A stretch of 64,000 nt of DNA. Source: Patescibacteria group bacterium. GTDB lineage: Bacteria > Patescibacteriota > WWE3 > JAUXAW01 > JAYEID01. Shown piece by piece: positions 4,870 to 56,547 of this stretch. The DNA lies in contig JAYEID010000013.1 in the NCBI GenBank assembly GCA_034659915.1, forward strand, positions 10,627-74,626, read 5' to 3'. The notes below the pieces were generated by a model, which saw only the letters and a program-made list of their open reading frames with translations, ran no database searches and had not been told where the DNA came from. The position numbers were made by a program, and so were the translations under genes. How positions within the stretch are numbered: the stretch's first letter is position 1; every line of letters begins with the position of its first letter.

Positions 4870-4938
4870 GCGGCCCGCGGGTTATCATATAAAATTCGTG
4901 TTGGCGAGTTCTCCGTTTATACATAAGGAGGGACGGCG

Positions 4939-5973
4939 ATGTCCAGGCGCAAAAACTCGTATGCGAGTTTTGGTAAGGGGGTAGATACACTTGAATCGTG
5001 GAGCTTTGAGGAACTAAAAAGGGCGGTGCAACTACCCGAAGATTTGTTGGAATGGGAGTCAACACCGTACCGCAAGGATCAGGCAAAAAGAGTTTTGCTC
5101 GGTGCTGCGCGAGAGTTACGCCTTGCCGCTCTTCGCGTTATAGCTGAGCAGATGAGACATGTAGCCCGTCGCGGGAGCCCCTCTTGGGCTGGTAGTTCCT
5201 ATTCCCCAGCTTTGCGCAACCGGGTACTCTTTTTATTGGAACAACTGTCCTCTGAGCAATTGCCACAGCCAACTGGGGGTCTGGTCTGGCAGCAAAGGTT
5301 CGCGATTGAGGAACTTGTTCTTAATGTGTTCGCTGATGAGTGTTTCGAAAGAACTCTGTACGGCGATAGCTTTGGTAGGGAATATTTTCATGTGTTTCAG
5401 CGGATTTGGGAATGTACGATAGCCTTGCCGGAGAAGCGCTATTCACCTACACGAGAGTTTGTTGAGCTGTACGATATGTTCTGGAGGAGATTTGTCGATA
5501 AAAGCAAAGCACCTCCTTTAGGTGCTCATATGGAAATGCTCCTTCGTAAGAGAGCTTACAGCAACACCTCAGAAGAGTTTTCGGAGGAGCTAAAAGAGTT
5601 CATTGACAGCGTGTGTGCGTGGTTAATTCGAGACGAAAAGAATGATGACCTGCTTCACTACATACGCCGTTATGGATTTTCGCAGACACGGCACGTACTC
5701 GAAAGACGTTTTTGGAAGATGCTCCTCAGGGCTGCGGAGCTGAGTGTGACAGATGACGAAGACCGCACTGCTTTTATGAAAATGCCTGTTCAGTGGGTAT
5801 TCGGGAATACAGAGGCTTGTAAGCACATCTCTAACCGGGTGGTTACCTCGTGGTGTGTAATGACAAGCCGCTCCATTGATGGCGCTGTGCGCGAGCCGTT
5901 CGAGGTTCCGCAATGGGTGAAGCGGACAAAGGTTTGGCTGGAATTTGAGAAGTGTGTGGAAACCTATACTTGA
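4939..5973 (+). CDS. Hypothetical protein (344 aa), Arg/Trp-rich, no recognised domain
   Basis: Long ORF with AAGGAGG RBS (4926-4932); local GC visibly higher than neighbouring genes; followed by a hairpin and T-run terminator at 6071-6118. Confidence 0.5.
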   Translation: MSRRKNSYASFGKGVDTLESWSFEELKRAVQLPEDLLEWESTPYRKDQAKRVLLGAARELRLAALRVIAEQMRHVARRGSPSWAGSSYSPALRNRVLFLLEQLSSEQLPQPTGGLVWQQRFAIEELVLNVFADECFERTLYGDSFGREYFHVFQRIWECTIALPEKRYSPTREFVELYDMFWRRFVDKSKAPPLGAHMEMLLRKRAYSNTSEEFSEELKEFIDSVCAWLIRDEKNDDLLHYIRRYGFSQTRHVLERRFWKMLLRAAELSVTDDEDRTAFMKMPVQWVFGNTEACKHISNRVVTSWCVMTSRSIDGAVREPFEVPQWVKRTKVWLEFEKCVETYT

Positions 5974-13007: not shown

Positions 13008-13032
13008 ATTAGTAGATTAGTAGACAGTAGTA

Positions 13033-13058
13033 AGTAGACCTGCCTGCCGGCAGGCAGG
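13033..13058. repeat. Short intergenic copy of the GC-rich palindromic element (perfect palindrome CCTGCCTGCCGGCAGGCAGG)
   Basis: Matches the 5' module of the intragenic copies at 18913 and 29191. Confidence 0.6.
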
Positions 13059-13322
13059 AGCTGGTAACACGTAAATCGTAATTAGATATCCGTTTTTAGC
13101 TTTTAGCAATTAACAATAAACAATTATTTTCTACCAAGACCTTGAGGGATTACGTACGCAAAACCTTACGGACTTTCAGGTTCAAGCCCTTGCCCGGTAT
13201 TCCTTGTCTCCAGTTACGAGGTTCCTGTTTCCAGCCTCTCTCATGCGCTTATGTTTTAACGGTGCTATTATTCTTCTACTAGATTGCACCCCACACCCTT
13301 TTTATGGTTAAATTAATACACG

Positions 13323-15670: not shown

Positions 15671-15760
15671 GCTTAGAGAAAAATTTGCTTTGGTCCGGGG
15701 TTAGTAGATAACTAATTGTAAGCAAATTTTTCTATGCTCTTGAAAACGGCACCCCCGCCA
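15671..15760. repeat. Diverged partial copy of the 172-nt element (3' module) downstream of ftsK
   Basis: GCTTAGAGAAAAATTTGCTTT...AAGCAAATTTTTCTATGCTCTTGAAAACGGCACCCCCGCC aligns with the 3' half of the 172-nt element plus the GGCACCCCCGCC boundary motif. It is flanked by ~45-nt direct repeats (15577-15625 and 15801-15850). Confidence 0.75.
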
Positions 15761-15867
15761 TGCTTACAGCGTGAAAGTATCTGTTCTTAATCTGATTAGC
15801 GTATTTTGATTTCCAATCCCAGCGAAGTGACGTAAATTTCGGGGGTCCGCCGGATTCGCGCGAGACT

Positions 15868-15985
15868 TTGACAGGCACCCCCCTTTCAGGGCCGCTCGCA
15901 CCGTTCAGCGTTGGAGAGTAGGAAAGAGAACCGCTCGCTTTGTGATCAAAACCCTTCATGGCGGGAGCCTGCCAAGTCCCTTTCC
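15868..15985. repeat. Intergenic repeat family B, copy 2 (upstream of rodZ-like)
   Basis: Shares GGCACCCC..CT.TCAGGGCCGCTCGC.CC ... CGCT.GCTTTGTGATCAAAA..CCCTTCA.GGCGGGAGCC.GCCAA with 53603-53760. Confidence 0.75.
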
Positions 15986-17592: not shown

Positions 17593-19629
17593 TTGCAACC
17601 ACCGCTTTTTTCCGTTATTCTTAAGAACACAGTGACAGCTAGAGAATTGATTGAAAAGTATATTTCCTTTTTTGAGGCGCGTGGTCATGTTGAGATTGCT
17701 GGGGCTTCCTTAGTACCAGAAAATGATCCTTCTGCACTTTTTATCTCTGCTGGTATGCACCCTCTAATTCCCTTCTTGTTGGGAGAAGAACACCCTGCTG
17801 GTAAGCGCTTAGTTAGCTTACAAAAATGTATTCGAACAAATGATATTGAGCAAGTAGGTGACGGGTTTCATCATACCTTCTTCTTAATGCTTGGAAACTG
17901 GTCTTTGGGTGATTATTTTAAAAAAGAGGCAATCTCTTTTAGTTTTGAATTTCTTACTTCTTCTGAGTGGTTAGGGTTAGCTCCGGAAAGGTTGTATGTT
18001 TCTGTTTTTGCTGGTGATGAGACTGCTTCCCGGGATAAGGAGTCAATTAAGTATTGGAAGTTAGAATTTAAGAAAGTAGGGATTAAGGCTGAGGTGGGTG
18101 AGAGGATATTCTTCTTTGGAAAAGAAGAAAACTGGTGGGGACCTGTAGGTGATACAGGACCTTGCGGACCTGATACAGAAATATTTTATGATATAGGCAA
18201 AGACCATTGTGGTCCTAATTGCGATCCCTCTTGTCAATGTGGGAAATATATTGAAATTTGGAATGATGTGTTTATGGAATTTAAAAGAATCCGCCGGTTG
18301 GCGGACCGCAAACCGCAAACCGTGAACCGTGAACCGCAAGATAAAGAGCGGAAGGCGGAGAGCGGTTCGCGGAATGCCGATTACGAATATGTTCCTTTAG
18401 AGCAGAAAAATGTAGATACGGGGATGGGTGTAGCTAGGGTTGTTGCAGTTACTAGCGGCTACGCAGATGATGATTATAAAACCGACCTTTTCCACCCTAT
18501 TATTTCCAAGATTGAAGACTTGTCTGGTAAAGAATACCAGCAATTAGAAGTTAACAATGAACAATCGTTAGTTAGTTCAATGCGCATTATTGCTGATCAT
18601 GTACGGGCAGCTGTTTTTGCTATCAGTGATGGTGTAGTACCTTCAAATACAGATCGAGGTTACGTGGTTAGGCGACTAATTCGCCGTGCTGTTCGTCATG
18701 GACATGCTTTAAACATCCAAGATAGCTTTTTGGGGCAAGTTGCAGAGGTTGTAATTGAGAATTATAAGGATCTTTTTCCTGGGTTGGAAAGTGAGGAGGA
18801 AACAATACTTACTGAGATTTCCGATGAGGAAAAAAGATTTGGTAAGGTTTTGCGGAGAGGTTTGAAGCATTTTGAAAAGTTGGTTGAACAAAAAGTTGGT
18901 GATGAAACGCTGCCGCACCTGCCTGCCGGCAAGGCAGGTTCCCCAGCCCCTGGGGCTGCGGCCAAAGAAGCCCCAGGGGCTTCTCCTGCGCTGGGCGAGC
19001 GAATTACCGGGGAAGAAGCCTTCGACCTTTACCAAACATATGGGTTTCCGTTGGAGTTAACCAAAGAGCTGGCAGAGGAAAGGGGTTTAGCGGTTGATAG
19101 AAAGGGGTTTGAAGAGGCCTACAAAAAGCACCAAGAGAAATCCCGTTCTGGTGCAGATAAGAAATTTAGTGGGGGTTTGGTAAGTGAATCTGAAGAAGTT
19201 ATAAAACTGCATACAGCTACCCATCTTTTGCACGAAGCTCTGCGCCAGGTATTGGGTGCTCATGTAAAGCAGGAAGGGTCGAACATTACTCCCCAAAGAT
19301 TGCGGTTCGATTTTTCCCATCCAAAAGCAATGACGGAGGAGGAGATTGGAGAAGTCGAAGCTCTAGTTAATGAAAAAATAGAGGAAGATTTGCCCGTGCG
19401 GAAAGAGACCATGTCATTAGAGGAGGCAAGGGAGCGGGGTGCTTTAGCGTTTTTTACAGATAAATATGGAGATGAGGTGAAAGTTTATTCTATTGGCGGA
19501 TTTTCAAAAGAAGTTTGCGCTGGTCCTCATGTTGATTCTACCGGGAAACTTGGTAAATTTGAGATAATAAAGGAAGAATCTGTGGGTCGCGGTAAACGGA
19601 GAATCCGTGCTATACTGAAAAAGGATTAG
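17593..19629 (+). CDS. alaS: Alanyl-tRNA synthetase, short form (catalytic, tRNA-binding and editing domains; no C-Ala domain)
   Basis: Class II AlaRS core (ARGHVEIAGASLVP...FISAGMHP...QKCIRTNDIE..GDGFHHTFFLMLGNWSLGDYFK) and an editing domain with HxxxH...CAGPH. The start is uncertain: TTG at 17593 or GTG at 17630 (MTARELIEKY). The gene carries an in-frame 78-nt GC-rich repeat at 18913-18990. Confidence 0.9.
   Translation: MQPPLFSVILKNTVTARELIEKYISFFEARGHVEIAGASLVPENDPSALFISAGMHPLIPFLLGEEHPAGKRLVSLQKCIRTNDIEQVGDGFHHTFFLMLGNWSLGDYFKKEAISFSFEFLTSSEWLGLAPERLYVSVFAGDETASRDKESIKYWKLEFKKVGIKAEVGERIFFFGKEENWWGPVGDTGPCGPDTEIFYDIGKDHCGPNCDPSCQCGKYIEIWNDVFMEFKRIRRLADRKPQTVNREPQDKERKAESGSRNADYEYVPLEQKNVDTGMGVARVVAVTSGYADDDYKTDLFHPIISKIEDLSGKEYQQLEVNNEQSLVSSMRIIADHVRAAVFAISDGVVPSNTDRGYVVRRLIRRAVRHGHALNIQDSFLGQVAEVVIENYKDLFPGLESEEETILTEISDEEKRFGKVLRRGLKHFEKLVEQKVGDETLPHLPAGKAGSPAPGAAAKEAPGASPALGERITGEEAFDLYQTYGFPLELTKELAEERGLAVDRKGFEEAYKKHQEKSRSGADKKFSGGLVSESEEVIKLHTATHLLHEALRQVLGAHVKQEGSNITPQRLRFDFSHPKAMTEEEIGEVEALVNEKIEEDLPVRKETMSLEEARERGALAFFTDKYGDEVKVYSIGGFSKEVCAGPHVDSTGKLGKFEIIKEESVGRGKRRIRAILKKD
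18913..18990. repeat. GC-rich palindromic repeat element inserted in-frame in alaS (copy 1)
   Basis: ~78 nt, ~90% identical to 29191-29269. Contains palindrome CCTGCCTGCCGGCAAGGCAGG and the inverted pair AGCCCCTGGGGCT / AGCCCCAGGGGCT. It is translated as PAGKAGSPAPGAAAKEAPGASPA. Confidence 0.85.
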
Positions 19630-28708: not shown

Positions 28709-29416
28709 ATGTCTGTTGTCGCACGAAGTTTTTATAAGGGAAAGACTACGAGTATTGCTAAAAACCTTTTGGGAAAGGTTTTGGTTCGCCACGTAAAGCC
28801 CACGGAGAGTGGGTCACGTGCCACCGAAGTTGAGAATGAAATAAACAAGAAAGGAATAATCGTAGAGACGGAGGCTTATTTAGGACCGGAGGATAAGGCT
28901 TGCCATTCCTTCAGAGGGAAGACAGAAAGAACGGAGGTAATGTTTGGACCGGCGGGGCATGCTTATGTTTATTTGGTTTACGGAATTCATTATATGTTTA
29001 ATATTGTGACTGAGGCTCCGGGAGAAGCTGTTTTGGTTCGAGCACTTGAACCCCTTGGTGGTGAATTTGGTAAACGCATTGCTTCCGGTCCGGGTAAACT
29101 GACAAAGTGGCTTAATATTGATAAAAGCTTCAACGGTTGGGATTTGACCAAGGGGGAGGGGTTGTGGATTTCCCATGAGCCGCGATCTTCGCCGTACCTG
29201 CTTGCCGGCAAGGCGGGTTCCCCAGCCCATGGGGCTGCGGCCAGAGAAGCCCCAGGGGCGTCTCTTGCGGCGGAGGATTTAGACCACGGAAATTTCGAAA
29301 TTTCTTCCGCAAAAAGAGTTGGTGTAGATTACGCCGAAGAGTGGTCGGAAAAACCGCTTCGTTTTTTCATCAAAGATAATCCCGCTGTTTCTACAGCGCA
29401 GGACTCCTTATGTTAA
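28709..29416 (+). CDS. 3-methyladenine DNA glycosylase (MPG/AAG family)
   Basis: VETEAYLGPEDKACHSFRGKTERTEVMFGPAGHAYVYLVYGIHYMFNIV matches the MPG family; carries the in-frame GC-rich repeat at 29191-29269. Confidence 0.8.
   Translation: MSVVARSFYKGKTTSIAKNLLGKVLVRHVKPTESGSRATEVENEINKKGIIVETEAYLGPEDKACHSFRGKTERTEVMFGPAGHAYVYLVYGIHYMFNIVTEAPGEAVLVRALEPLGGEFGKRIASGPGKLTKWLNIDKSFNGWDLTKGEGLWISHEPRSSPYLLAGKAGSPAHGAAAREAPGASLAAEDLDHGNFEISSAKRVGVDYAEEWSEKPLRFFIKDNPAVSTAQDSLC
29191..29269. repeat. GC-rich palindromic repeat element inserted in-frame in the MPG glycosylase gene (copy 2)
   Basis: Same element and same translated frame as copy 1 (LAGKAGSPAHGAAAREAPGAS). Confidence 0.85.
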
Positions 29417-39910: not shown

Positions 39911-39972
39911 CCTTGATGGCAGAACTTTAGCAGGCACCTCGCCCGTAGAAAGTTTCCGGTTGCGGAACGCGT

Positions 39973-40144
39973 CGGTGCTACACGCTTTCAAGAGCCCTTG
40001 TACTACATAGAGTACAGGGCAGGCCGTGCTTAGGATTGAGCGCGTTTACCCCGAACCCTGCGTGGTTTGGGGCTTAGAGAAAAATTTGCTTTTAGTTTAT
40101 TGTTAATTGATAGGTTATTGTGGGCAAATTTTTCTATGCTCTTG
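39973..40144. repeat. 172-nt structured intergenic repeat, copy 1 (between rpoB and rpoC)
   Basis: 100% identical to 50854-51025; internal hairpins (CTTGTACT/AGTACAGG; CCCCGAACC/GGTTTGGGG with a G-U pair) and a long-range inverted repeat TTAGAGAAAAATTTGC / GCAAATTTTTCTATGC. Confidence 0.9.
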
Positions 40145-44592: not shown

Positions 44593-44670
44593 CAATTGTT
44601 CATCTATTGTTTATCGCGATTCTGATCGCAGTTTAACGGCAACTTCTGAGTTGCATTTTACGAGTGTTTA
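44593..44670 (+). ncRNA. Conserved intercistronic structured element (rpsL-rpsG), copy 1
   Basis: CAATTGT...CGCGATTCTGATCGCAGTTTAACG shared with 56461-56535; hairpin GCGAT-tctg-ATCGC and a second hairpin GCAACT-tctg-AGTTGC whose stem covaries with GCAGTT-tccg-AACTGC in copy 2. Confidence 0.5.
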
Positions 44671-44731
44671 GTGAGTTTATCTAGTAGTTAAGTTATGATT
44701 ATTTTATCGATTACCTTTTTGGCTTAAAGTC

Positions 44732-50832: not shown

Positions 50833-50853
50833 TAGGTAGTATTGTGGATGCGC

Positions 50854-51025
50854 CGGTGCTACACGCTTTCAAGAGCCCTTGTACTACATAGAGTACAGGG
50901 CAGGCCGTGCTTAGGATTGAGCGCGTTTACCCCGAACCCTGCGTGGTTTGGGGCTTAGAGAAAAATTTGCTTTTAGTTTATTGTTAATTGATAGGTTATT
51001 GTGGGCAAATTTTTCTATGCTCTTG
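50854..51025. repeat. 172-nt structured intergenic repeat, copy 2 (between rplW and rplB)
   Basis: Identical to 39973-40144. Confidence 0.9.
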
Positions 51026-52407: not shown

Positions 52408-52446
52408 GGGAGAATTTCGAAATTCGAATCTCGAAATCCAAAATAT

Positions 52447-52474
52447 TTGGAGCTTAGGATTTAGAATTTATGAT
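52447..52474 (+). promoter_or_regulatory. Conserved promoter-like module TTGGAG-16nt-TATGAT upstream of rplV
   Basis: ATTTGGAGCTTAGG.ATTTAGAATTTA is shared almost verbatim with positions 6-29 upstream of dnaK. Confidence 0.4.
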
Positions 52475-52484
52475 TTAAATTATT

Positions 52485-52823
52485 ATGGTTGTTTATGCTC
52501 GAAGCAAAAGTTTACCAATATCTCCGCAGAAGATGAACTTGGTTTTGGATTTAATTCGGGGAAAAGATATTGCAGAAGCAAGGAAGATACTTACTTTTTC
52601 TACAAAGAAGGCAGCCGGTCTTGCTAAGAAGGCTTTGAATTCAGCTGTAGCAGATGCTAAGCACAATGAGGGTTTAAGAGAAGATGAGCTAAAAATAGTG
52701 GAAGCCCGAGCAGATAAGGCTCCTACTTTGAAGCGGATCCGGCCTAGAGCTAGGGGGCGTGCTGATAGAATTTTAAAAAGACGTACACATCTTACCATTG
52801 GTGTAGGGACGGAAGAAGGATAA
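52485..52823 (+). CDS. rplV: 50S ribosomal protein L22
   Basis: L22 family, 112 aa. Confidence 0.93.
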
Positions 52824-53591: not shown

Positions 53592-53602
53592 TATGAAAAG
53601 AC

Positions 53603-53760
53603 TTTGGCGGGCACCCCGCCTCTCAGGGCCGCTCGCGCCTGTCGAAGTTTAAGTCTGATTTGGTTAAGCGCTTGCTTTGTGATCAAAAGTCGAATGGTGT
53701 CAGTGAATAATTGTAGCGACTTTTGATCAAAACCCTTCAAGGCGGGAGCCAGCCAACGTC
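53603..53760. repeat. Intergenic repeat family B, copy 1 (between rpsC and rplP), with a nested hairpin insertion
   Basis: Same modules as 15868-15985, plus a ~45-nt insert forming TGATCAAAAGTCG...CGACTTTTGATCA (53680-53730), flanked by direct repeat GATCAAAA. Confidence 0.75.
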
Positions 53761-56460: not shown

Positions 56461-56535
56461 CAATTGTATTACTATCGTTTTACGCGATTCTGATCGCAGT
56501 TTAACGCAGTTTCCGAACTGCATTTAACGTGAGCG
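56461..56535 (+). ncRNA. Conserved intercistronic structured element (rpsN-rpsH), copy 2
   Basis: See copy 1; compensatory base changes keep the second hairpin. Confidence 0.5.
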
Positions 56536-56547
56536 TAGCGAGCTATT

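Follow-up and report, generated by a model that had tools for sequence, protein, structure and literature searches.

The question raised by the alaS gene of the ultra-small Patescibacteria group bacterium studied here is how a GC-rich, palindromic segment of DNA comes to lie in frame within the sequence of an essential gene, that of alanyl-tRNA synthetase (AlaRS). The gene is contained in a 64,000-nt stretch of genomic DNA, which was analysed at its full length and is called the window throughout; it occupies the open reading frame (ORF) 17593..19629 on the forward strand (678 codons, with a GTG start at 17632), and its product, NCBI protein P0001, encoded on a 184,270-nt contig, is the short Patescibacteria form of the enzyme (Pfam tRNA-synt_2c, 3e-132, and tRNA_SAD). 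A preliminary description had placed a GC-rich 78-mer at 18913-18990 in the AlaRS frame, had reported a near-identical in-frame copy at 29191-29269 in an unrelated gene, and had likened both to the Rickettsia palindromic elements (RPEs), in a different lineage and with a different sequence. Both segments are where they were said to be. Their GC content is 73%, against 42.3% for the whole window, and the 100-nt GC profile tops out at 0.70 at the element. They are identical at 72 of 79 positions (91.1%) in a gap-free MAFFT alignment, match each other in blastn within the window with E values of 1e-24 to 1e-27, and are also recovered as a repeat family by a repeat search; their likeness is real and far above chance. 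The palindromes named at the outset exist as well: AGCCCCNGGGGCT occurs four times in the window, where 0.10 occurrences are expected, and all four lie within the two copies. The explanation that we favor, with a probability of about 0.75, is that these segments are copies of a selfish mobile palindromic repeat tolerated in frame.

That the AlaRS segment is an insertion was confirmed by comparison with orthologs. In an alignment of 19 AlaRS sequences the corresponding peptide is present only in P0001 and in its 75%-identical ortholog P0002; in P0003 (72% identity), P0004 (65%) and the other AlaRS, a helix ending in ...EKL.... runs directly into (I/V)SGEEAF. The earlier statement that homologs lack the insert holds for 17 of the 18 aligned AlaRS and fails for P0002, in which this site holds a copy in shortened form and a second copy is found elsewhere. 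The insertion point, referred to here as site B, follows the catalytic/tRNA-recognition core and precedes the conserved GEEAFDLYQTYGFP segment; P0012, P0099 and P0111 have unrelated inserts in this same loop. At the DNA level, the empty alaS sites of two other genomes, L005 (GCA_964581615.1) and L007 (GCA_048622755.1), give a net insertion of 87 nt, or 29 codons, at 18910-18996, encoding the peptide LPHLPAGKAGSPAPGAAAKEAPGASPALG: the in-frame character of the insert stands, its length of 78 nt does not. The second copy lies in a gene for a DNA-3-methyladenine glycosylase of the MPG/AAG family (MPG; ORF 28709..29416, forward strand; Pfam Pur_DNA_glyco, 4.8e-52), in which the insert represents residues ~160-197, flanked by two conserved blocks. 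None of 19 aligned MPG orthologs, including the closest, P0123, has it. In what follows the copies in alaS and MPG are called c1 and c2.

Searches beyond the window yielded four more copies, for a known total of six in three genomes (family 1), five of them intragenic and one intergenic. One is in grpE, on the same 184-kb contig and, because dnaK is at 48-1973 of the window, just upstream of it; the GrpE protein (P0121) carries the peptide SPHLPAGKAGSPAPGAAAKEAPGASPAAGE, identical to the AlaRS peptide. It was found with a six-frame concatenated peptide query against an index of 5.8 billion proteins, and since this query matched only GrpE and MPG and missed AlaRS itself, the index must be considered lossy for such a low-complexity peptide. 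At the DNA level the grpE copy is represented by its last 30 nt, taken from the ends of Logan contigs. Two more copies are in the alaS gene of L002 (GCA_964476415.1), which encodes P0002 and is only 73% identical overall to alaS of the window. The first of them, L002-A, lies in another loop (site A) and is identical to c1 at 52 of 52 positions; the other, L002-B, is at the orthologous site B and has lost 24 nt of the main stem between AGCCCC repeats. The sixth copy, at 1249-1312 of the JGI metagenome contig L016 (CCGCCGCATTCCCCAGCCCCAGGGGCTGTGGCCAAAGAAGCCCCTGGGGCTTTTCCTGCGGCGG), sits in a spacer of 106 nt, flanked by an htpX-like gene and the gene for a glycosyltransferase, and shows that a non-coding copy exists. 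It emerged from a scan of the JGI metagenomes with a generic stem pattern, which returned 14 loci; the other 13 were discarded as unrelated GC-rich repeats on high-GC contigs. A pattern covering all four variants known at that point had no match in the JGI metagenomes and none in IMG/VR. Among the GTDB representative genomes, which evidently do not include the MAG of the window, the exact pattern GGGGCTGCGGCCANAGAAGCCCC had a single match, in a Burkholderiaceae metagenome-assembled genome (MAG; L001), which lacks any palindrome context and was set aside as a chance occurrence. A profile of the peptide found no protein family among 1.84 billion cluster representatives, its sole match being a 3346-aa repeat protein containing 'APGAAAKEAPGA' 16 times, which was judged to be low complexity. 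An Rfam scan likewise gave no family for the element (the best match, sX13, scored 19 bits against a gathering score of 50).

Alignment of five full copies yields a 64-nt core with the layout CCGCCGCA-TTCCCC-AGCCCCTGGGGCT-GCGGCCAAAGA-AGCCCCAGGGGCT-TCTCC-TGCGGCGG. The terminal inverted repeats (TIRs) CCGCCGCA/TGCGGCGG are 8 nt long and common to all copies, with some degeneracy at the right end of c1; the 13-nt arms, AGCCCC(T)GGGGCT and AGCCCC(A)GGGGCT, enclose a loop of 11 nt. In c1 (18910..18996, forward strand) the left repeat CTGCCGCA is at 18910-18917, followed by an additional palindrome, CCTGCCTGCCGGCAAGGCAGG, at 18918-18938, the spacer TTCCCC (18939-18944), the first stem arm AGCCCCTGGGGCT (18945-18957), the loop GCGGCCAAAGA (18958-18968), the second arm AGCCCCAGGGGCT (18969-18981), the spacer TCTCC (18982-18986) and the degenerate right repeat TGCGCTGG (18987-18994). 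The corresponding parts of c2 (29189..29273, forward strand) are the left repeat TCGCCGTA (29189-29196), the additional palindrome (29197-29217), a spacer (29218-29223), the arm AGCCCATGGGGCT (29224-29236), the loop (29237-29247), the arm AGCCCCAGGGGCG (29248-29260), a second spacer (29261-29265) and the right repeat TGCGGCGG (29266-29273). With mismatches in both stems, c2 is an older, decayed copy.

The additional palindrome, here called hp1, is 21 nt long and stands immediately after the left repeat in c1, c2 and L002-B; in the grpE copy its presence is deduced from the peptide. It is missing from L002-A and from the more distant L016 copy, and where hp1 is seen as DNA it always has the identical bulged A. 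The simplest history would be that the composite represents a derived subfamily that later multiplied, and the occurrence of hp1 at three loci (alaS, MPG and grpE) is as expected from the copying of a derived master. A perfect 20-nt palindrome, CCTGCCTGCCGGCAGGCAGG, with the sequence of hp1 minus the bulged A, is found alone at 13039..13058, in the spacer between the RNase J gene and ftsK (one match against 0.01 expected); it folds into an 8-bp stem (z = −2.7), is not present at the syntenic loci of L005 and L007, and suggests that hp1 may be a separable unit. In the same spacer, at 13008-13060, GTAG-containing 8-mers (GTAGATTAGTAGATTAGTAGACAGTAGTAAGTAG) directly follow the RNase J stop codon and are themselves followed by the solo palindrome, which is preceded by GTAG-A. 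A GTAG motif ahead of a GC-rich hairpin is the layout of those repetitive extragenic palindromic sequences (REPs) that are associated with RAYT transposases (REP-associated tyrosine transposases; PMC3733652), and we mention it as a lead only.

The core hairpin, in single-stranded DNA or in RNA, consists of the 8-bp terminal stem, an internal loop, the 13-bp stem and the 11-nt loop. As single-stranded DNA the L016 and L002 cores fold with −26.2 and −25.1 kcal/mol, respectively (z = −5.0 and −5.3; none of 200 shuffles as good), a strong fold; the window copies are weaker and only modestly above shuffled sequences (RNA z = −1.9 and −1.6; DNA z = −2.2 and −1.5). In place of the two-hairpin structure originally proposed, the organization is that of a 64-nt core, which forms one hairpin and to which a 21-nt palindrome may be added. 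In the L016 stem the central pair is A-T instead of T-A, a single compensatory change.

Both window copies are read in the same phase, to give L(P/L)AGKAGSPA(P/H)GAAA(K/R)EAPGAS. All six frames are open in both, as a result of the high GC content, so the lack of stop codons is in itself uninformative; it does mean that insertions of this GC-rich sequence in multiples of three leave the host protein untruncated. The length variants are all multiples of three (the 87-nt insertion, the 21-nt difference due to hp1, the 24-nt deletion of L002-B), and the fact that every variant keeps the frame suggests that the segment is translated and not spliced out; in line with this, the 29-codon segment has no Rfam match and no intein motifs. 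No frame but the one in use lacks Cys, Trp and Arg; among the remaining five, four would encode Cys-, Trp- and Arg-rich peptides, and a reverse frame, reading AGEAPGASLAAAPGAGEPALPAGRCG, would be nearly as benign. The seven differences between c1 and c2 comprise 5 non-synonymous and 2 synonymous changes, which, together with the existence of an intergenic copy, is as expected if the encoded peptide were under no constraint. Tryptic peptides predicted for the inserts are AGSPAPGAAAK, EAPGASPALGER and VGDETLPHLPAGK.

Mapping onto solved structures places the inserts where the host folds have little or nothing. Opposite residues 435-469 of the window AlaRS there are 6 residues in A. aeolicus AlaRS (1riq); opposite MPG residues 160-197 there are 6 residues in human AAG (1bnk), and opposite the ~25 residues of the GrpE insert there are none in M. 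tuberculosis GrpE (8gb3). The AlaRS and GrpE inserts fall between aligned blocks of these structures. For the window MPG, an AlphaFold2 model built on the ortholog alignment (mean predicted local distance difference test, pLDDT, 81.6; predicted TM score, pTM, 0.81) has pLDDT below 50 and no secondary structure for insert residues 170-192; it predicts that the insert is a disordered loop, the remainder of the fold being confident.

Independent assemblies behave as they should if these sequences are repeats. Two Logan assemblies (runs SRR26901925 and SRR26901928) start exactly inside the grpE copy, at the junction of AAGAAGCCCCAGGGGCTTCTCCTGCGGCGG with GAGAG; one 19,099-nt contig, SRR26901925_17310, starts in the grpE copy and ends in the alaS copy at ...CACCTGCCTGCCGGCAAGGCAGGTTC, and the contigs that follow begin inside this same alaS copy. 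Contig breaks such as those inside the grpE and alaS copies are what a repeat leaves in a de Bruijn graph. Logan contig L026 runs unbroken through c2, the more diverged copy, and is identical to the window there.

The presence of c1 and L002-B at one orthologous site has to be read in the light of the history of alaS. Taken as a whole, the genes of the window, L002 and L005 are all equally far apart (73.3, 73.1 and 73.0% nucleotide identity). Around site B, however, the window and L002 are 85-96% identical (around 18826-19000, in a tract of ~200 nt) versus 59-63% for the window and L005, and in the 3' third of the gene it is the window and L005 that form the closer pair (75-88% identity in 19126-19560). 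To judge from these local identities, alaS is a recombination mosaic. We had considered the 100% identity of the element at the orthologous site B as a sign of selection at the DNA level, and dropped this idea when a four-way sliding comparison of 17632-19629 with L002, L005 and L007 showed that the tract includes the host flanks. The argument for copying thus rests on the non-homologous sites, namely grpE, MPG, site A of alaS and the L016 spacer.

What the favored reading draws on is the multi-copy distribution, the defined inverted ends, the hairpin, the absence from orthologs, the upkeep of the frame, the predicted location in disordered loops and the apparently unconstrained peptide. Alignment further shows copies that are more alike than the genes that host them, with what appears to be a derived subfamily at several loci. 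The likeness in behavior to RPEs that had been proposed for another lineage and another sequence is supported by the absence of the element from orthologs, the further copies, the fold and the loop locations. We would envisage a family of small non-autonomous palindromic repeats, similar to MITEs (miniature transposable elements with inverted repeats) or REPs, that is restricted to a narrow Patescibacteria clade and became inserted in unrelated genes and in spacers. A 64-nt basic unit would have given rise to a subfamily with the 21-nt hp1 just inside the left end, which then multiplied and of which c1 and c2 would both be members. The survivors in essential genes would be copies that landed in permissive surface loops, and the surviving phase the one that gives a small, flexible peptide of Pro, Ala, Gly, Ser and Lys; on at least one occasion, homologous recombination between lineages would have carried the element along with its flanking sequence. 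The spread of the copies would probably have been transposition-like, with the enzyme supplied in trans. The combination of a hairpin with a lack of target duplications fits copying by a single-strand mechanism (HUH/tyrosine, IS200/IS605- or RAYT-like), or copying mediated by repair, better than a DDE transposase; we give any particular mobilizing enzyme far less weight than the reading as a whole.

Several observations speak against this reading or limit it. Pfam scanning of 22 window ORFs revealed no transposase or other mobility gene; neither these ORFs nor the gene lists of the fetched loci contain a RAYT or IS200/IS605-type transposase, and nothing else with the ends of the element, such as a parent insertion sequence (IS), is present inside the window. 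No target-site duplication or conserved target motif was recognized at six junction pairs. With neither a mobilizing enzyme nor a target-site duplication found, it is the distribution of the copies, and not a mechanism, that justifies the word mobile. The known copy number is only six, from scans that covered the window, the fetched loci, the GTDB representatives and patterns in the JGI metagenomes. The recombination tract shared at site B means that occupancy of this site in the window and L002 derives from recombination or common descent, and not from a second insertion. Covariation among five copies is limited to the single compensatory pair of L016, a level reached by 133 of 500 shuffles, which is not significant in a test that is underpowered. 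Finally, orientation and phase are the same in four of four independent intragenic insertions, for which the chance expectation is about (1/6)^3, so that random insertion requires a selective filter; selection against damaging insertions can account for much of this bias, though not for all of it.

The element could alternatively be a passenger repeat that has no dedicated transposase and moves along with its flanks by strain-to-strain homologous recombination or gene conversion, aided by template switching or hairpin-primed repair at replication forks. The mosaic structure of alaS, in which window and L002 approach each other at site B and window and L005 in the 3' third, is what such traffic would produce; the lack of a target-site duplication, conserved target or transposase in the window causes it no difficulty, and the precise in-frame loss or gain of the 21-nt palindrome, like the 24-nt deletion between AGCCCC repeats, shows that hairpin-driven rearrangement takes place here. 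We nevertheless regard it as unlikely, as homologous recombination cannot put the same 64-87 nt into non-homologous sites and the 8-nt inverted termini of all copies point to recognition of the ends. Quite unlikely, too, is that the hairpin is a functional nucleic-acid signal, acting as DNA or RNA (in protein binding, in transcriptional pausing or termination, in mRNA stability or RNase action, or in recombination or uptake), for which the position inside genes is secondary. A function of this kind would be in keeping with the 52/52 and 46/46 nt identities between genomes whose alaS genes are 73% identical, with the strong fold of the 64-nt core (z about −5), with the compensatory swap in the 13-bp stem of L016 and with the location of that copy 34 nt downstream of a stop codon, where a terminator might be expected. 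But the cross-genome identity is partly due to the shared recombination tract, c2 persists despite lost pairing in both stems and L002-B without half of the main stem, no Rfam family corresponds to the element, and its copies have a single orientation with respect to translation and lie in arbitrary loops of genes unrelated to one another.

Selection might instead act on the peptide, as an adaptive Pro/Ala/Gly-rich linker, a tag for interaction or localization, or a surface decoration. The constancy of phase and orientation among the intragenic copies, the identity of the AlaRS and GrpE peptides and the persistence of the inserts in essential genes could be taken in this sense; we consider it very unlikely in view of the excess of non-synonymous over synonymous changes between c1 and c2 (5 versus 2), the tolerance of variants shorter by 7 or 8 residues, the intergenic copy, the predicted disorder of the insert, the failure of the profile to find a family among the 1.84 billion representatives and the lack of a common function among the host proteins. 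As for an artefact of assembly or binning, in which foreign GC-rich sequence was joined into AT-rich genes, a GC-rich island in a MAG at which short-read assemblies break does invite the suspicion. Its probability is practically negligible: in Logan assemblies made independently from two runs, the alaS copy has the same two junctions and the grpE copy the same 3' junction, the entire c2 is identical in L026, copies also occur in a separate MAG (GCA_964476415.1) and in a JGI contig, and the frame is kept in every case.

A selfish palindromic repeat of this sort has its closest parallel in the RPEs. According to the accounts given in PMC2229807 and PMC10969869 of the work of Ogata et al. (2000, 2002), RPE-1 to RPE-10 are 105-146 bp long, with TIRs of ~12 bp and open frames; they lie in spacers and, fused in frame, within 19 genes of R. 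conorii, which has 44 copies, and in the sole case tested, that of the gmk (guanylate kinase) gene of R. conorii, the effect on enzyme function is described as neutral or slightly detrimental. Wolbachia also has protein-coding palindromic repeats (Ogata 2005, as cited in PMC2229807). Like RPEs, the present elements are dispersed palindromic repeats with terminal inverted repeats, a long stem-loop and open frames, occur both in spacers and as in-frame fusions in conserved housekeeping genes of a reduced-genome bacterium, are absent from orthologs and have no transposase of their own; models and alignments predict that they also share the surface-exposed position. They differ in showing no sequence similarity, in being about half as long (64-87 nt as against 105-146 bp, with TIRs of 8 rather than ~12 nt) and known from six copies rather than 44, GC-rich in an AT-rich genome, modular by virtue of the optional 21-nt palindrome, and hosted by the phylum Patescibacteria; moreover, neither the consensus nor the termini contain CGTC or GACG, whereas R. 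conorii RPEs are reported to carry CGTC as an end tag (PMC3733652).

With the GTAG- or CGTC-tagged, RAYT-mobilized REPs and their composites, the BIMEs (bacterial interspersed mosaic elements; PMC3733652), the element has in common that it is a short GC-rich hairpin without target duplications; REPs also lie occasionally wholly inside ORFs and are translated, and dimers or composites occur (PMC3733652). The 20-nt solo palindrome at 13039-13058, with GTAG before it, is REP-sized. However, the family-1 consensus and c1 have neither GTAG nor CGTC (a lone CGTC in c2 is a copy-specific substitution), the element exceeds a REP unit in length and ends in true inverted repeats, and no RAYT was seen; REPs are overwhelmingly extragenic and present in high copy number, whereas five of the six copies known here are intragenic. 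The bacterial MITEs (ERIC/IRU, the 107-bp Correia/NEMIS, YPAL, Coxiella QMITE1; PMC2229807, PMC10969869) resemble it in being non-autonomous, with TIRs and stem-loop transcripts, and in having open frames and occasional in-frame intragenic fusions (PMC2229807, PMC10969869). Unlike the element, they usually have TA or other target duplications and a link to a parent IS, and are mostly intergenic; here no target-site duplication or parent IS was found. GC-rich palindromic mini-elements in an AT-rich genome, some of them in frame (as in yeast var1), are also known as the GC clusters or double-hairpin elements of fungal mitochondria; their mobility was inferred from presence/absence polymorphism, and they belong to another domain and compartment and are unrelated in sequence. 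By the published descriptions of size, composition and ends, and with no alignment to an RPE consensus, the element is not a sequence member of the RPE or REP groups: its kind is known, but the family and the phylum in which it occurs are new.

Two palindromic families unrelated to the window element came to light in other Patescibacteria. Family 2, with ends GACGGCGAA/TTCGCCGTC and a 13-bp stem AAAGCTAAGCTTT/AAAGCTTAGCTTT, is represented by a copy at 9153-9224 of L023 (forward strand), in frame in MPG and in the same loop as c2, and by another at 408-477 of L016 (reverse strand), in frame in a glycosyltransferase; the two are 84% identical over 70 nt (E = 5e-17) and encode the peptide KKLSFK..QSLAL. 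Its ends carry a GACG...CGTC tag, again a lead only. Family 3 is ~99 nt long, with a 37-nt near-perfect palindrome (AAAGAGTCAGACTCTTTACGCCGTAAAGAGTCTGACTCT), and has two copies (4921-5019 and 5365-5459 of L030; 83% over 99 nt, E = 2e-20) in the alaS gene encoding P0012, one at each of sites A and B; they point in opposite directions, and each is in frame. These are the same two loops that family 1 occupies in L002. Such repeated hits on the same loops are most simply explained by permissiveness, although a target preference may also contribute, and the phenomenon looks recurrent in Patescibacteria. A wider generalization, which we put forward tentatively and think rather doubtful, would be that in-frame palindromic mini-elements are a general, hitherto undescribed source of lineage-specific loop insertions in the housekeeping proteins of Patescibacteria (candidate phyla radiation, CPR): unrelated families with one architecture (GC-rich 8-9-nt inverted ends, a 13-bp stem, near-palindromic arms) would repeatedly hit AlaRS sites A and B and the MPG loop, and would move from strain to strain with co-conversion of their flanks, in a homing-like manner and with no element-encoded enzyme.

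AlaRS has other inserts as well. At site C (18289-18387; ORF residues 233-265) an older insert, RRLADRKPQTVNREPQDKERKAESGSRNADYE, stands opposite 5 residues of A. aeolicus AlaRS; its DNA is an imperfect palindrome of 7-nt units (CGCAAAC-like, five times, then GCGGAAG-like, four times), and it is orthologous in four genomes with ordinary divergence (82% to L002, 76% to L005, 73% to L007). A related 'RKAESG.R.A' segment is found at AlaRS site A in L005 and L023. The motif 'ESGSR', which occurs both in the site-C insert and in MPG residues 33-37, was examined as a possible common element and rejected, the underlying DNA being different (GAGAGCGGTTCGCGG versus GAGAGTGGGTCACGT) and without a blastn match. 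Elsewhere, PASPDGVGEAG precedes YFK in P0004 and P0014, SSRSAGSPRLHSGQAGQ is present in P0014 and KFQIPNSKYQINAKSQIQNSE in P0099. Together these inserts suggest that loop insertions may be common in AlaRS across the phylum.

The rest of the window is unremarkable in gene content: Pfam identifies dnaK, PNPase, RNase J, ftsK, alaS, ftsA, a histone-deacetylase-like gene, a nitroreductase, MPG, dnaJ, rpoB and rpoC, the other scanned ORFs having no Pfam match; a ribosomal-protein/secY block lies downstream, according to the gene list of an overlapping Logan contig, and the top protein matches are to MAGs labelled 'Patescibacteria group bacterium'. The spacers contain further repeats. A 176-nt intergenic repeat at 39969-40144 (rpoB-rpoC spacer) is 99% identical to one at 50850-51025 (spacer after rplW), with a partial third copy (82%) at 15671-15759, after ftsK; it contains the inverted repeat AAAAATTTGC...GCAAATTTTT, and Logan contig L028 starts within it, at window position 50996, so that it forms a repeat node in an independent assembly too. 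It could represent either a promoter/terminator cassette or a second mobile element, in this case a non-coding one. Shorter repeats upstream of genes pair 15863-15975 with 53599-53756 (73-92% identity; GC-rich, ..GGCACCCC..CAGGGCCGCTCGC..), 44593-44675 with 56461-56542 (77%), and 5-50 with 52444-52487 (87%); they could be leaders or promoters that the genes have in common, or else additional small repeats. In ribosomal-protein operons of other phyla leader families are often found. Despite the large ribosomal-protein operon, no tRNA gene and no Rfam family above threshold was detected in the 64 kb.

Protein-coding palindromic repeats have been described as a peculiarity of Rickettsia, with a few intragenic REPs and MITEs elsewhere, mostly in Proteobacteria; the open-access full-text and preprint literature, outside of which most subscription-journal papers fall, contains no report of them in Patescibacteria/CPR that we could find. 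That an unrelated element behaves alike in a second reduced-genome lineage, and two further families in relatives, suggests that small genomes, which are densely packed with genes and offer little non-coding space for landing, have come convergently to tolerate selfish hairpins. Such inserts have practical consequences: they break short-read assemblies inside essential genes, inflate the apparent number of 'lineage-specific insertions' in CPR proteins, and can lead astray phylogenies that are built from alignments of marker genes, alaS among them. At the same time, the near-identical copies provide a starting point in the search for the mobilizing enzyme and in tests of the neutrality of the inserts for the proteins that host them.

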